Origin: Trichlorobacter lovleyi SZ
GTDB taxonomy: Bacteria > Desulfobacterota > Desulfuromonadia > Geobacterales > Pseudopelobacteraceae
Direction of reading: 5' to 3'
Length of the DNA stretch: 32,000 bases
Assembly: GCF_000020385.1 (NCBI RefSeq)
Contig: NC_010814.1
Coordinates: 510,001-542,000 of the forward strand
The notes beneath the pieces were generated by a model. The model was not told the origin of the DNA and searched no databases. It saw only the letters and a list, made by a program, of their open reading frames with translations. Below, one piece after another: positions 17,083 to 32,000 of this stretch (position 1 is the stretch's first letter; each line of letters begins with the position of its first letter). Both the position numbers and the translations under genes were made by a program.

Positions 17083-19764
17083 ATGAAAAAGTACCGTACC
17101 ATCTGGATGGCGTTACTGCAGTGGGGGCTGCTCTGGAGCCTGATTGTCGGTTGCTCGTTGCTCTGGAATGAACGCCTGATCCGGCAACAGGTCTATGAGT
17201 ACTCCCGCCATGAAGCAACCACCATTATCAATAAAGATCTTGCCTTCCGGCGTTGGGCCACCATGCATGGAGGCGTCTATGTGCATCCCACCGAACAGAC
17301 CCCGCCCAATCCCTGGTTAACCATACCCAAACGCGATGTTGTGACGACTGACGGCGACAAACTGACCCTGATGAATCCGGCCTACATGACCCGTCAGGTC
17401 ATGGGGCTGTTTGGCGAGCAGTTCGGCGTCAAGGGCCATATCACCAGCCTGATAGTCAAAAATCCTGCCAATGCGCCGGATGCCTGGGAAAGGGATGCCC
17501 TGTTGCGTTTTGAAAAAGGGGCGACTTCTGTCAGCGAGTTGACCATCATCAACGGTGCTCCCTACTATCGCCTGATTCTGCCGATGAAGATGGAGCAGGG
17601 CTGTCTGAAGTGCCACGCCGATACCAGGATCCCTGTGGGCGGTATCAGGGGAGGCATCAGTGCTGCCGTGCCGCTGGCGCCGCATCTGCAGGCCGGCGAG
17701 AGCGGGTTGAGGGGGGTTCGTCTGGCCCACGGCGGTATCTGGCTGGCGGGGATGATCGGCATCACGATTGCCAGCGCCATTTATCTGCGCCAACAACGTC
17801 TCAGTCAGCAGGCGGAAGACGACTTGCGGGCCCAGGAGGCCTTGTATGCATCATTGACCACCGCCTCTCCCACCGGTGTTTTCCAGGCCGATCTGCACGG
17901 GGCCTACTGTTACGTCAATGATCGCTGGTCAGCCATTGCCGGATTGCCGTTTGAGCAGGCCCTGGGAGAGGGGTGGTTGCAGGCACTGCATCCCGAAGAC
18001 CGGGTACGGGTCTCTGAGGAATGGCAGCACTCAGTTGCCGGAGATTGTCCCTTCAGTCTGGAATTCCGTTTTGTGCGGCCCGATGGTACGGTTGCCTGGG
18101 TCTATGGCCAGTCGGCCGAGATCTTTGACAGCAAGGGCGGGATTGTCGGCTATGTCGGTACCATTACCGATATCTCGATCCGCAAAAAGGCGGAGGCTAC
18201 CCTGGCGGAGCAGGCCCTCTTCCTGCGGGAGAGCCAGTCCATTGCCCACCTGGCGGGCTGGAAGTCGAACCCGGATTCGGACCTGCTTTCCTGGACCGAT
18301 GAGATGTACCATATGCTGGACCATCCGCAGGATGAGCCGATCAGCCATGTTGCCTGCTTCAGGTATTTTGATCCGCAGGATCTGCCGATGGTGGAAAAGG
18401 CGCTGCAGGAGGCGATGCGCAACGGTACCCCCTTCAAGTTGAGCTGCCGGATGGTCAGCGCCCGTGGCCGCCGTTTCTGGGCCGATTTCCGCTGCATCGG
18501 CAGGATGGATGGACCGGATGGTGGGTATATTGGCGGTACCCTGCAGGATATCAGCGAACACAAACAGATTGAAGAGCTGTTGATCAGCGCCAAGGAGATG
18601 GCCGAGGCCACCAGTCGCGCCAAGACAGAGCTGCTGGCTACCCTGAGCCATGAGCTGCGTACGCCGCTGAATGGTGTGATGGGAGGGGTGCAGTTGCTTG
18701 AGATGACGGATCTTTCGGCAGATCAGGAAGAATACCTGCAGATGGTCAGGACATCGGCAACCAATGAGCTGGCTCTGGTGAACGACCTGCTTGATCTGGC
18801 CGGGCTTGAGGCATCAGGCCTGAAGGTCGAGTCAACGCCGTTCAATCTGCTGGAGAGCATTAAACTGGCCATCACACTGCACCGCAGCGCACTGGAGACG
18901 CGGGGGTTGCCACTTGTGACCAGTCTGCCGGAGAGTCTGGCACAGCTGGTGATTGGCGACGGGCGCCGCCTGACCCAGATTGTCTCCAACCTGCTGGGCA
19001 ACGCGATCAAGTTTACCGAGCAGGGGGGGATCTCCCTTGCCGCGGATTGTACGCCGTGCGGCGGCAGTGAGCTGCGGCTGCAGGTGCGGGTCAGCGATAC
19101 CGGCATCGGTATTGCTGAAAAAGATCTGCAACGGATCTTTGAGCCCTTTGTGCAGGCCGATATGTCCAGCACCCGCAGGTTTGGCGGCACCGGCCTCGGC
19201 CTGGCGATCTGCCACCGGCTGGCAGAGCGGATGGGGGGCAGCATCCGTGTTGACAGTATCCCCGGTGAGGGGAGCAGTTTTACCCTTGAGCTGCCGTTTC
19301 TGGCCGCCGCCGCTGATCTGGCCGAGACGGACGGGCATGACGCAGCCCTGCAGCCGCTCTGGCATGGCTCACGCCTGACGGTAGTGATTGCTGAAGACAA
19401 TCCGGTCAACCTGAAGGCAGCCGCAGGGCTGGCGGGCAAACTGGGGCTCAGGGTACTCTGCGCTGAAGACGGCAAGCAGGCTCTGGCGCACTGGATGTCA
19501 GGCGGAGTTGATGTTATCCTGATGGATATCCAGATGCCGGTCATGGACGGCAGTGAGGCCACCCGTTTTATCCGTCAACGTGAGCAGGGCAGCGGTGCGC
19601 ACACGCCGATCATCGCCCTGACCGCCCATGCTATGGCCGGCGACCGTGAACGACTGCTGGCCGAGGGATTTGACGGCTACGTGGCCAAGCCGTTTCTGAT
19701 CAACGAGCTGGCAGCGGAACTGGAACGCGTAACTACGGCTGTGGCCGCTGTCTCTTCTGTTTGA
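17083..19764 (+). CDS. Hybrid sensor histidine kinase 1: periplasmic c-heme (CxxCH, DUF3365/Tll0287-like) domain, 2x PAS, HisKA, HATPase_c, REC
   Basis: The ATG at 17083 (MKKYRTIW...) has GGAG upstream. Order: TM1; a periplasmic domain with ...FRRWATMHGGVYV...LMNPAYMTRQV...PANAPDAWE... and CLKCH (17602-17616); TM2; two PAS domains; H-box LATLSHELRTPLNG; N/G boxes [29 protein letters not shown]; and a receiver DVILMDIQMPVMDG...ALTAHAM...GFDGYVAKP. Confidence 0.88.
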   Translation: MKKYRTIWMALLQWGLLWSLIVGCSLLWNERLIRQQVYEYSRHEATTIINKDLAFRRWATMHGGVYVHPTEQTPPNPWLTIPKRDVVTTDGDKLTLMNPAYMTRQVMGLFGEQFGVKGHITSLIVKNPANAPDAWERDALLRFEKGATSVSELTIINGAPYYRLILPMKMEQGCLKCHADTRIPVGGIRGGISAAVPLAPHLQAGESGLRGVRLAHGGIWLAGMIGITIASAIYLRQQRLSQQAEDDLRAQEALYASLTTASPTGVFQADLHGAYCYVNDRWSAIAGLPFEQALGEGWLQALHPEDRVRVSEEWQHSVAGDCPFSLEFRFVRPDGTVAWVYGQSAEIFDSKGGIVGYVGTITDISIRKKAEATLAEQALFLRESQSIAHLAGWKSNPDSDLLSWTDEMYHMLDHPQDEPISHVACFRYFDPQDLPMVEKALQEAMRNGTPFKLSCRMVSARGRRFWADFRCIGRMDGPDGGYIGGTLQDISEHKQIEELLISAKEMAEATSRAKTELLATLSHELRTPLNGVMGGVQLLEMTDLSADQEEYLQMVRTSATNELALVNDLLDLAGLEASGLKVESTPFNLLESIKLAITLHRSALETRGLPLVTSLPESLAQLVIGDGRRLTQIVSNLLGNAIKFTEQGGISLAADCTPCGGSELRLQVRVSDTGIGIAEKDLQRIFEPFVQADMSSTRRFGGTGLGLAICHRLAERMGGSIRVDSIPGEGSSFTLELPFLAAAADLAETDGHDAALQPLWHGSRLTVVIAEDNPVNLKAAAGLAGKLGLRVLCAEDGKQALAHWMSGGVDVILMDIQMPVMDGSEATRFIRQREQGSGAHTPIIALTAHAMAGDRERLLAEGFDGYVAKPFLINELAAELERVTTAVAAVSSV

Positions 19765-19771
19765 GGTTTTG

Positions 19772-30754: not shown

Positions 30755-32000
30755 CAACAGCTGCGGATCGGCATGCCGTTGATGAACTGGTGCGTATCGG
30801 CCCCCTGCTGGAGGAGGCGCTTGAAGGTACCGCTACAACAGTTGGTGATGCCTTTCTGGCAGCCCTGGTTACCACGCTGGCCAGGGTGCTCAACGTCCGT
30901 TATGCCGTTGTTGGCCGCCTGCTGCCGCAGCATGCTGCAATACAGACCCTGAAGGTCTGTGTCGATGGCGAGCTGGTGGAAAACATCGTGTATCCCCTGT
31001 CCGGAACCCCCTGCGAACATGTGGTGGGGCTGGCTCCGCGTTATTTTGCCGCCGGCGCTGCCGATCTCTTCCCGAAAGACGAACTGCTGCGTCAGCTGCA
31101 GGTTGAATGCTATCTGGGGGTGCCGCTGTACTCATCCCGGCATGAGCCGCTGGGTAATCTGTTGCTGATGGACAGCAAACCGTTACCGGAAGCGCTGGTG
31201 CCGCCGGCCCTGAAACTGATGGAGCTGTTCGCCTTGCGCACGGCCGGAGAGATTGAACGGGCTGAGCGGGAGCAACAACTGGCAATTCAGGATATCCACC
31301 TCGGCATCATCCTGAACAACAGCCGCGACGGCCTGTTGACTGCCTCCGCCGATGCCCGCATACTGGCCGTCAACCGGGCTTACTGTACTCTGCTGGGCTA
31401 TGAGGAGCAGGAACTGCTCGGCCGGTCTATCCACGAGATTGAGGCAAATGAGACAATGGAAGAGGTGGATGCCCACACCCGTAAAATCGTTGAGCAGGGC
31501 TTTGACCGCTTTATCAGCCGTCATCGCTGTAAGGACGGCACAACACGGGATCTGGAGCTTTCCATCAGCTATATCGCCGAGGTCGGCCAGTTTCTGACCA
31601 TTGCCCGGGATGTGACGGAGCGCCTGCTGCTTGAGCGACAACTGCTTGATTCCGAACAGCGCTATCAGGCCTTTACCGAGTTAAGCTCCGACTTCTGCCA
31701 TGTCTGTAGCCGTACGGCCGGCGGACCCTACCGTGTGCAGTGGATCGGCGGCCAGTTTGAGCGGATAACCGGGTATGGTAACGATGAGTTGCTGGCCCTG
31801 GGGTGCTGGCTGCCGCTGGTACACCCCGATGACCGGGAGCGGGTGGCGGCAGGGTTGTTACGGCTGTCTGCCGGTGATGAGCTCCGTTCCGAATTCCGGC
31901 TGGTGCGCAAGGATCTGGTTGTGCGCTGGATCAGTGAGCATAGCCGTTGTGTACAGGACCCCGTCAATCCGGATCTGTTGCGCCTGTACGGTTCAGCCCG
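30751..32000 (+). CDS. Cytoplasmic GAF-PAS-PAS sensor protein (5' part; runs off the window end, output domain unseen)
   Basis: Absent from the ORF track because it has no stop in the window. My translation from the ATG at 30751 (ATGA overlap with the HK5 stop) gives MTTAADRHAVDELVRIGPLLEEALEG...VECYLGVPLYSSRHEPLGNLLLMDSKPLPE (GAF-like). This is followed by two PAS-like segments (LGIILNNSRDGLLTASADARILAVNRAYCTLLGYEEQELLGRSIHEIE...; ...YRVQWIGGQFERITGYGNDELLALGCWLPLVHPDDRERV...). The frame stays open to 32000. Confidence 0.75.
   Translation, partial: MTTAADRHAVDELVRIGPLLEEALEGTATTVGDAFLAALVTTLARVLNVRYAVVGRLLPQHAAIQTLKVCVDGELVENIVYPLSGTPCEHVVGLAPRYFAAGAADLFPKDELLRQLQVECYLGVPLYSSRHEPLGNLLLMDSKPLPEALVPPALKLMELFALRTAGEIERAEREQQLAIQDIHLGIILNNSRDGLLTASADARILAVNRAYCTLLGYEEQELLGRSIHEIEANETMEEVDAHTRKIVEQGFDRFISRHRCKDGTTRDLELSISYIAEVGQFLTIARDVTERLLLERQLLDSEQRYQAFTELSSDFCHVCSRTAGGPYRVQWIGGQFERITGYGNDELLALGCWLPLVHPDDRERVAAGLLRLSAGDELRSEFRLVRKDLVVRWISEHSRCVQDPVNPDLLRLYGSA

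Follow-up and report, generated by a model that had tools for sequence, protein, structure and literature searches.

Hybrid histidine kinases (HK) that are encoded side by side, share one type of catalytic core and differ in their input modules raise the question of how such an array came about and whether its members serve a common output. We pursued this question in Trichlorobacter (formerly Geobacter) lovleyi SZ, in a stretch of 32,000 nucleotides (nt) of contig NC_010814.1 (hereafter the window), where eight genes between positions 17083 and 32000, all co-directional on the plus strand, were delineated by open reading frame (ORF) calls and translations. A preliminary description of the window had recognized five hybrid kinases in this region, had explained them by duplication of one kinase–receiver core with swapping of inputs, and had presumed that their signals are funnelled into a shared downstream Hpt protein or response regulator. 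Our analysis revealed that conserved motifs of these kinases, the H-box and a GFDGYVAK stretch, are crossover points at which neighbouring paralogues have been fused or deleted, moving an existing sensor onto another core. While the expansion of such kinases is in itself a known phenomenon, what is new is that sensor swapping can be followed from strain to strain and placed at conserved catalytic motifs. For the locus as a whole, we consider it rather probable that it represents an old and fluid expansion of multi-sensor hybrid kinases with sensor recombination sited at these motifs, in which each kinase would respond to its own signal. The genes of the array in the window and the sites within them that the following sections refer to are:

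17083–19764, plus strand: HK1, 893 amino acids (aa); transmembrane (TM) segment, periplasmic heme-c Cache domain, TM segment, two PAS stretches (PAS_3), HisKA-HATPase_c-REC (Pfam, TM scan)
17602–17616, plus strand: codons of the CLKCH motif in HK1
19772–21886, plus strand: HK2, 704 aa; 5TMR-LYT, PAS, HisKA-HATPase_c-REC (Pfam)
20780–20823, plus strand: crossover interval in HK2, 44 nt identical in the genes A and B of related strains, encoding a 15-residue H-box stretch
21883–24705, plus strand: HK3, 940 aa; signal/TM segment, SBP_bac_3, TM segment, two PAS, HisKA-HATPase_c-REC (Pfam, TM scan)
24622–24641, plus strand: first copy of the GFDGYVAK stretch, TTTGACGGCTATGTGGCCAA, 20 nt in HK3; crossover site
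24702–25808, plus strand: SBP, a LivJ-type binding lipoprotein (Peripla_BP_6, Pfam E 2e-50), 368 aa; ACD94289
25805–28036, plus strand: HK4, 743 aa; TM segment, divergent dCache-like periplasmic domain, TM segment, HAMP-like linker, HisKA-HATPase_c-REC (Pfam)
27953–27972, plus strand: second copy of the GFDGYVAK stretch, TTTGACGGCTATGTGGCCAA, 20 nt in HK4; partner crossover site
28033–28794, plus strand: class I S-adenosylmethionine-dependent methyltransferase (Pfam Methyltransf_11), 253 aa; ACD94291
28871–30754, plus strand: HK5, 627 aa; two adjacent TM segments, HAMP-like segment, PAS, HisKA-HATPase_c-REC; ACD94292
30751–32000, plus strand: 5' part of HK6, which continues past the window end; full gene 947 aa (translation, Pfam)

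Public contigs match the window at 100% identity over 7–13 kb, and one of them (L002; overlap of 7149 nt, 100% identical; window coordinate = L002 coordinate + 24851) reaches 10 kb further. Together they show a signalling cluster of 12 genes that run in one direction over ~23 kb, the first two thirds of it inside the window. The order is HK1, HK2, HK3, SBP, HK4, methyltransferase, HK5, HK6, HK7, PhnD-like binding protein, HK8 and REC9, which gives eight kinases (seven hybrid, one orthodox), a methyltransferase, a stand-alone receiver and two binding proteins. On this contig, the complete HK6 gene (L002 5900–8743) encodes GAF, three PAS and HisKA-HATPase_c-REC, and is followed by HK7 (1193 aa; CheR_N-CheR, PAS_10, PAS, HisKA-HATPase_c-REC), the PhnD-like binding protein, the orthodox HK8 (503 aa) and REC9, a single-domain receiver of 129 aa, after which a convergent gene with a CCG domain marks the end of the cluster. 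The five Hpt-less kinases with five different sensors at 17083–30754 were thus confirmed by Pfam, while the count of five is incomplete for the array, and what had been read as a GAF-PAS protein is the beginning of the sixth hybrid kinase. The binding lipoprotein and the methyltransferase described earlier were recovered as Peripla_BP_6 with a lipobox (LLAGC, read from the sequence) and Methyltransf_11, the former being translationally coupled to HK4.

Kinases with this type of core occur about once in ~1 Mb among 75 unrelated loci, compared to 6–7 per 20 kb in syntenic Geobacteraceae loci, so that the kinase density of the array is far above background. Exact protein matches in strain SZ were obtained for SBP, the methyltransferase and HK5 (accessions as listed), and HK8 and REC9 match ACD94295 and ACD94296; annotation as hybrid sensor kinases thus already exists for these genes. 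A published description of the array was not found in a literature search.

Sensor exchange between neighbouring paralogues

Syntenic arrays were found by anchoring on the methyltransferase, in T. thiogenes and in three metagenome-assembled genomes of Geobacteraceae, while the closer genomes L086, L090 and L091 were found through relatives of HK5. The gene orders in T. thiogenes and the closer genomes are:

T. thiogenes (L006), start: MFS gene; gene A (5TMR-LYT, PAS, HisKA-HATPase_c, no receiver); gene B (two PAS, hybrid core)
T. thiogenes (L006), middle: four-PAS version of HK3; LapD_MoxY_N-HAMP-PAS hybrid kinase; methyltransferase
T. thiogenes (L006), end: long HK5 with periplasmic domain and HAMP; GAF-less HK6; HK7; PhnD; HK8
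L086 (HK5 93% identical): HK1, A, B, HK3, methyltransferase, HK5, HK6, HK7, PhnD, HK8, REC9
L090, from HK3 onwards: HK3, methyltransferase, HK5, HK6, HK7, PhnD, HK8, REC9
L091 (1–7836, Logan ERR12726941): HK3-like, HK5, HK6, REC9 orthologue (88% identical)

One exchange concerns HK2. Its first ~1,010 nt are 83–100% identical (per 60 nt) to gene A of the sister strain L086, the remainder is 90–100% identical to gene B of the same strain, and over the core it matches gene B of other T. lovleyi strains (P0054) at 100% identity. Informative sites are of the A type up to 20779 and of the B type from 20824 onwards, directly on either side of the 44-nt H-box stretch, and this switch is therefore attributed to a deletion by homologous recombination between the adjacent paralogues A and B in SZ. 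HK2 is thus a strain-level chimera that carries the 5TMR-LYT-PAS sensor of A on the core of B. In engineered chimeric histidine kinases, a foreign sensor is fused to a kinase core near the DHp helix, and HK2 resembles these in that the sensor of one gene sits on the core of another with the joint in the H-box. It differs from them in that it arose by homologous recombination of tandem paralogues in a wild strain and that its signalling is putative.

A second crossover concerns SBP and HK4. In L086 and L090, the methyltransferase directly follows HK3, without SBP-HK4 in between, and the binding protein is absent from both genomes. Furthermore, the HK3 of these genomes is HK3-like up to TTTGACGGCTATGTGGCCAA and HK4-tail-like thereafter. 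The most parsimonious interpretation of the compared sequences is that HK3 and HK4 recombined at this 20-nt stretch, so that SBP was removed together with HK4, the reverse event (a gain) being less parsimonious.

A third difference affects HK5, which, when aligned to positional orthologues of 864–878 aa, lacks a domain of ~240 aa between TM1 and TM2. The short form is conserved in other genomes (P0121–P0125), and the loop-less arrangement of its two TM segments thus results from loss of this periplasmic domain in the T. lovleyi group. Input swapping, as proposed in the preliminary description, can accordingly be seen between strains in the HK2 chimera, the SBP-HK4 crossover and the HK5 periplasmic loss. 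Moreover, since the H-box and GFDGYVAK joints could be mapped, two of the runs that had been listed there as identical among the kinases turn out to be the actual crossover sites.

Beyond these events, the composition of the array varies at several further positions. HK1 has an orthologue in L008 (core 88–89% identical) and none at the head of the T. thiogenes array, where the positional orthologue of HK3 contains four PAS and no SBP domain. Both the GAF-containing N-terminus of HK6 and the flytrap of HK3 (vs two PAS) differ from the T. thiogenes counterparts. In L091, the methyltransferase, HK7, PhnD and HK8 are absent. Across the Trichlorobacter/Geobacteraceae arrays, order and orientation are therefore conserved, whereas membership and sensors are fluid.

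The methyltransferase was considered as a functional partner of the kinases, which is unlikely, as it adjoins a kinase in only 6 of 80 homologous loci, five of them arrays of the Geobacteraceae type, leaving 74 loci without an adjacent kinase. Given this distribution and its absence from L091, it is probably a passenger gene.

Diverged cores and unrelated sensors

All seven hybrid kinases are of the BarA/TorS type, with complete catalytic motifs, a receiver at the C-terminal end and no Hpt. HisKA and HATPase_c were identified in each of them with Pfam E-values from 1e-17 to 1e-32, and Response_reg with 1e-21 to 1e-27. In an alignment of the seven cores, SHE.RTP (H-box), GNA.KFT, D.GIG and GG.GLGL (N, G1 and G2 boxes) are invariant, and the receivers keep ED, D.QMP, ALTAHA and KP, corresponding to the acidic pair, the phospho-acceptor Asp, Thr and Lys. 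Assignment to the BarA, TorS, ArcB or EvgS equivalogs was not supported, with best NCBIfam scores of 360–412 bits compared to cut-offs of 676–890 and with matches that cover transmitter and receiver only.

Identity between the cores is moderate. End-to-end alignment gave 43–57% at the amino acid and 60–78% at the DNA level, where the preliminary description had spoken of very similar transmitters and receivers. The identical runs that it had listed for the five kinases held up in part: GGxGLGLxI is present in all five, while the others are confined to subsets, with LMGGRIWA and a 28-letter run found in HK2 and HK3 only and ILMDxQMPVMDG in HK1, HK3 and HK4, and the pattern ALTAHAM...GFDGYVAKP, as it had been written, matches no kinase. 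A recurring 20-mer was located at the three expected occurrences (19000, 21149 and 27278), and 20 nt is also the longest identical DNA that we saw between members of the SZ array. Recent gene conversion or amplification is ruled out by this DNA identity of 60–78% and by shared stretches of at most 20 nt.

Homologues were searched with the HK3 core as a query and with a profile of the HK1, HK5, HK6 and HK7 cores, scoring 8,000 candidates each, of which 7,997 (HK3 core) and 7,999 (profile) passed E ≤ 1e-30, so that both searches were saturated. Among the named matches, Geobacteraceae predominate for the HK3 query and Acidobacteriota (Terriglobia) for the profile, and the sensors of the matches vary widely. 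The preliminary description had held that cores no closer to each other than to unlinked kinases would speak against its duplication model, and for every member, outside proteins are indeed closer than the best array paralogue: at least 8, 42, 86, 10, 58, 3 and 6 for HK1 to HK7, counted among proteins shorter than ~690 aa, which makes the counts for the long kinases lower bounds. In a neighbour-joining tree of 257 cores, no clade with fewer than 157 leaves contains all seven. Paralogues that are mutually closest, as a recent local origin would have left them, were not found apart from the adjacent HK6 and HK7, which group as sisters along with the orthologues at their positions. With outside proteins sampled below ~690 aa, local duplication of one core is not supported, given the nearest-neighbour counts, including 42–86 closer outside proteins for HK2, HK3 and HK5, and the non-monophyly of the seven cores in the tree. 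The relationships among the cores therefore identify the array as an old lineage-specific expansion and not as a recent amplification of one core.

The sensor regions belong to different Pfam families and share PAS-level similarity at most. In HK1, a Tll0287-like domain (DUF3365, PF11845; E 1e-17) and a CLKCH motif at aa 174–178, between the two TM segments, corroborate the periplasmic CxxCH heme domain noticed earlier. HK1 thereby resembles the sCache_heme (DUF3365/Tll0287) domains, sharing the PF11845 match and the defining CXXCH, and since heme-Cache domains fused to signalling modules behave as nitric oxide (NO) sensors (Deshpande et al., bioRxiv 10.64898/2026.02.01.703092), NO binding may be expected by analogy with the family. 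As a separate observation, the window contains a run of genes at 5896–10473 on the minus strand that encodes an ABC ATPase, an FtsX/MacB-type permease, an FtrD-like membrane iron-sulfur protein and System II CcsA-like and ResB-like proteins; by strand, this run is unrelated to the kinases, though HK1 requires periplasmic heme-c attachment.

The LytS-type sensor of HK2 was identified as 5TM-5TMR_LYT (E 3e-24), and the Venus-flytrap sensor of HK3 as SBP_bac_3 (E 3e-26), both in agreement with their first assignment. HK3 resembles BvgS and EvgS (PMC4352136) in the fusion of a periplasmic SBP_bac_3 flytrap to PAS and a hybrid transmitter, and is unlike them in having one flytrap instead of two and no Hpt; a partial match to the EvgS NCBIfam model is far below cut-off. 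In HK5, the TM scan and Pfam found two adjacent TM segments followed by PAS, as had been described.

The sensor of HK4 is more divergent. Its match to dCache_1 (E 0.004; 17 bits vs a cut-off of 45) is sub-threshold, and 7 of 10 homologues show a sub-threshold dCache_1 match at the same place, so that the Cache-like half of the earlier reading is weakly supported, while the HAMP half was not detected by Pfam. The family is rare, with 74 representative clusters among 1.84 billion proteins in an exhaustive representative search; this search recovered HK4, which a word-indexed search with its N-terminal 350 aa had missed, even the query protein (743 aa) itself. An AlphaFold2 model of the periplasmic domain, computed without an alignment, was unusable (pLDDT 41.6).

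Periplasmic binding proteins are coupled to hybrid kinases in LuxP-LuxQ and TorT-TorS. In those systems, the binding-protein gene lies just upstream of a hybrid kinase with a double-PAS/Cache-like periplasmic domain, and by analogy SBP may form such a pair with HK4 and its weakly Cache-like sensor. In contrast to the known pairs, SBP is a Peripla_BP_6 lipoprotein, the HK4 sensor is rare with sub-threshold similarity to Cache, and the pairing is a predicted one. The PhnD-like binding protein and HK8 would constitute a second pair of this kind, in which the binding protein and the periplasmic part of the kinase co-diverge.

The array matches what has been described for deltaproteobacterial 'hybrid type 1b' kinases, which underwent lineage-specific expansion and domain shuffling, with Geobacter named as a rich lineage (Alm, Huang and Arkin 2006, PMC1630713). 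As in those expansions, paralogous HisKA-HATPase_c-REC cores carry unrelated N-terminal sensors and have no adjacent cognate regulator. Unlike the apparently random genomic positions reported there, seven of the kinases here form one co-oriented, translationally coupled array, and the shuffling can be dated to the strain level and mapped to stretches of 44 nt and 20 nt. The main value of the locus thus lies in a clean natural example of sensor kinases gaining new inputs, a process that was mostly inferred from distant comparisons before. Furthermore, strain pairs with fused and unfused genes allow asking whether the chimeras signal, and give hints about where engineered fusions are tolerated.

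Possible routes of output

Neither an Hpt nor a DNA-binding or other output domain was identified by Pfam in the window ORFs of at least 100 aa, and among the ORFs of this size in the remaining ~17 kb of the window, no response regulator was detected either. An ad hoc Hpt profile, which was built from five Hpt tails of related proteins and recovered the positive controls, was applied together with a motif regular expression to ORFs in all six frames of the window, its extension and the syntenic loci, and yielded no Hpt. The absence of Hpt and output regulators from the window, stated in the preliminary description, was thereby upheld; as for the sequence past 32000, in which it had suggested looking for outputs, a receiver (REC9) lies just outside the window, and still no Hpt.

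Under the explanation that we favour, a diverged expansion with motif-sited recombination, each kinase would sense its own signal. The heme-Cache domain of HK1 may respond to NO or a redox signal, the 5TMR-LYT module of HK2 to a membrane signal, the flytrap of HK3 and the SBP-HK4 pair to small solutes, and the PAS, GAF and CheR modules to cytoplasmic signals. Following established hybrid-kinase chemistry, each kinase would then autophosphorylate on the H-box histidine and pass the phosphoryl group to its own receiver. Onward transfer would, as in known phosphorelays, require an Hpt protein whose gene lies elsewhere.

Several points weigh against this explanation. The variation of members between close strains argues that each can be dispensed with on its own and that they do not have to act in a common pathway. 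Whether SBP-HK4 was lost in L086/L090 or gained in SZ was decided by parsimony alone. An Hpt protein in T. lovleyi is assumed, the Hpt search having spanned ~41 kb. Finally, the tree was calculated from p-distances and carries no support values, and the sister relation of HK6 and HK7 may be overstated, because neighbours of the long kinases were under-sampled.

Part of the same evidence fits tandem paralogues that have simply not been dispersed, each with its own unlinked partner and without any shared pathway, which we regard as possible but doubtful. Among themselves, the cores differ as much as they do from dozens of outside kinases, the members differ in the alpha-1 region of the receiver and in the DHp region after the H-box (core alignment), and the kinase and receiver identities among the seven paralogues are uncorrelated (Spearman -0.13). 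Moreover, members have been lost or fused between close strains, and expanded kinases are known to diverge in domain structure and expression (Alm et al., PMC1630713). Against this, gene order and direction have been preserved between species, stop/start overlaps occur at the majority of junctions, and the same terminal receiver (REC9) ends every complete version of the array, the short one of L091 included.

The best solved relatives of HK8 are ZraS and similar kinases, and HK8 resembles the ZraS/NtrB type, while the solved relatives of REC9 include Spo0F, with which it shares a TAY segment after beta-4. Two co-diverged types exist of both the PhnD-like protein and the HK8 periplasmic part, and they are spread mosaically among close strains (L002 12318–14661, L086 18296–20636 and L090 10231–12574 were compared). 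Between the types, PhnD is ~67% identical, HK8 aa 1–200 are 41–72%, HK8 DHp-CA 80–97% and REC9 98% identical. This mosaic co-divergence suggests replacement of the module as a unit and a physical pairing of the binding protein with the sensor. From their sequences and arrangement, HK8 and REC9 are probably a separate cognate pair fed by the PhnD-like binding protein.

Alternatively, HK1–HK7 and HK8 might all converge on REC9 as a Spo0F- or MrrA-like intermediary that turns many signals into one output. Consistent with such a role, REC9 is 98% identical between SZ and L086 despite 76% identity of the neighbouring HK8; it directly follows HK6 in L091, which is devoid of HK7, PhnD and HK8; and Spo0F is among its best solved relatives. 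Moreover, Rec-only hubs such as MrrA are known (PMC9981736), as are multikinase networks (PMC5992135, PMC8175716). However, HK8 DHp-CA is itself conserved, so that a simple HK8-REC9 cognate pair accounts for the conservation of REC9, and the near-invariance of REC9 is explained equally well by the conserved DHp of HK8 as by a hub. Furthermore, transfer from receiver to receiver requires an Hpt, and none was found in the window, the extension or the syntenic loci. We consider convergence on REC9 improbable.

In some hybrid kinases, the receivers act as phosphate sinks or autoregulatory domains. If the built-in receivers of the array did so as well, no Hpt would be needed and the kinase histidine would phosphorylate unlinked response regulators directly. 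The lack of an Hpt in ~41 kb and in the syntenic loci is in line with this, and so is the receiver-less gene A of the sister genomes, as the sensor of A would work with either type of core. Against it, all phospho-acceptor residues are kept in the receivers, and relatives from the same family in other phyla carry a C-terminal Hpt (PF01627; P0141, P0151, P0167, P0188, P0218), from which it follows that the core family is relay-competent. This alternative, too, has in our view only a small chance of being correct.

A far-reaching version of the favoured expansion would be an evolvable module for signal integration, in which up to ten ancestral kinases (eight hybrid kinases, gene A and HK8 in the reconstructed ancestor) converge on REC9 or on one unlinked Hpt, while the near-identical DNA at the H-box and GFDGYVAK motifs would allow sensors and cores to be re-assorted by homologous recombination. 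We regard this as speculative and unlikely; if true, the array would serve as a natural set of cassettes from which new sensor kinases arise.

Several kinases feeding one Hpt is a known arrangement, as in Vibrio, where LuxN, LuxQ and CqsS signal to LuxU. Multikinase networks have also been described around GacS/RetS/LadS and HptB in Pseudomonas, and related hybrid kinases may stay cross-compatible, which has been termed 'phylogenetic promiscuity' by Ortet et al. (Pseudomonas network literature: PMC5812489, PMC5992135, PMC8175716). As in the LuxU and Pseudomonas networks, the hybrid kinases of the array have different sensors and no Hpt of their own, so that a relay would depend on one encoded separately. 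In those networks, however, the kinases are scattered and their convergence was shown experimentally, whereas here they are clustered and convergence is a hypothesis. While the cluster is real, dense and conserved, the idea of a shared pathway is unsupported either way. Should one Hpt or receiver indeed serve all of these kinases, the array would offer a compact model of a multikinase network in a bacterium that respires organohalides and metals; failing that, it is a gene-family expansion of an ordinary kind that is already annotated.

Transcription, a candidate selenoprotein and flanking genes

The junctions between the window genes are, in order, 7 nt, four ATGA overlaps, 76 nt and another ATGA, exactly as listed in the preliminary description, and similar junctions occur downstream of the window. 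The overlaps suggest translational coupling. The proposal of one long transcript is in accordance with the co-directional and tightly coupled genes; that the transcript is a single one is doubtful, because a conserved sequence resembling an extended -10 promoter is present in the 76-nt gap. The relevant elements are:

16989–17020, plus strand: head block GCTTGACATTTCCTAGTTTAATGGCAGACTTT, 32 nt, overlapping the stop codon of the MFS gene; candidate promoter or operator
28806–28833, plus strand: candidate internal promoter in the 76-nt gap between methyltransferase and HK5; TTGCGT, 16 nt ending in TGA, TACACT; extended -10 type

Although the array of T. thiogenes begins with another kinase gene, the head block GCTTGACATTTCCTAGTTTAATGGCAGACTTT is near-identical there. 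In the internal candidate, four species share the core GGTG.TACACTG without variation, and a single base separates a TG from the second hexamer. Scans of the window for promoter and terminator consensus sequences returned matches at chance level and did not report the 28806–28833 motif, and Rfam and tRNA scans of the window were without matches. At least two possible transcription starts may be inferred from these elements.

The PhnD-like (Phosphonate-bd) gene (L002 12318–13145, window-equivalent 37169–37996) contains an in-frame TGA at L002 12735–12737. This codon is TGA in SZ, L090 and L009, the latter representing a different species, and TGC (Cys) in T. thiogenes, L086, L087, L088 and L089. 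Only in the TGA forms is it followed by a perfect 8-bp stem with a GUC or GUU loop, which starts 10–11 nt after the UGA and has the geometry of a bacterial selenocysteine insertion sequence (SECIS); shuffling resulted in z-scores of -1.7 to -2.8, and an Rfam search of the candidate matched no SECIS family. Geobacter species decode selenocysteine (PMC1794560), and no binding protein appears on the published lists that we consulted. A metagenome scan for PhnD-like genes returned two loci only, both Cys forms, and the numbering of the SZ GenBank proteins skips the gene. Based on the codon pattern and the hairpin, we consider the PhnD-like binding protein a candidate new selenoprotein; alternatively, the TGA is a nonsense mutation that the TGA-bearing genomes share.

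The rest of the window (~17 kb) encodes transporters, cytochrome c biogenesis proteins, TerC, LemA, an M48 peptidase, carbonic anhydrase, PurE and an MFS protein. An ORF of 786 aa at 1363–3723 on the minus strand encodes a spermine/spermidine synthase domain joined to a membrane region that matches MFS_1 weakly. Furthermore, the ORF list contains very long minus-strand ORFs beneath the kinase genes and elsewhere, among them those at 19733–21829 (698 aa, opposite HK2) and 15762–16997 (411 aa, opposite the MFS gene), which are probably shadow ORFs of GC-rich coding sequence.

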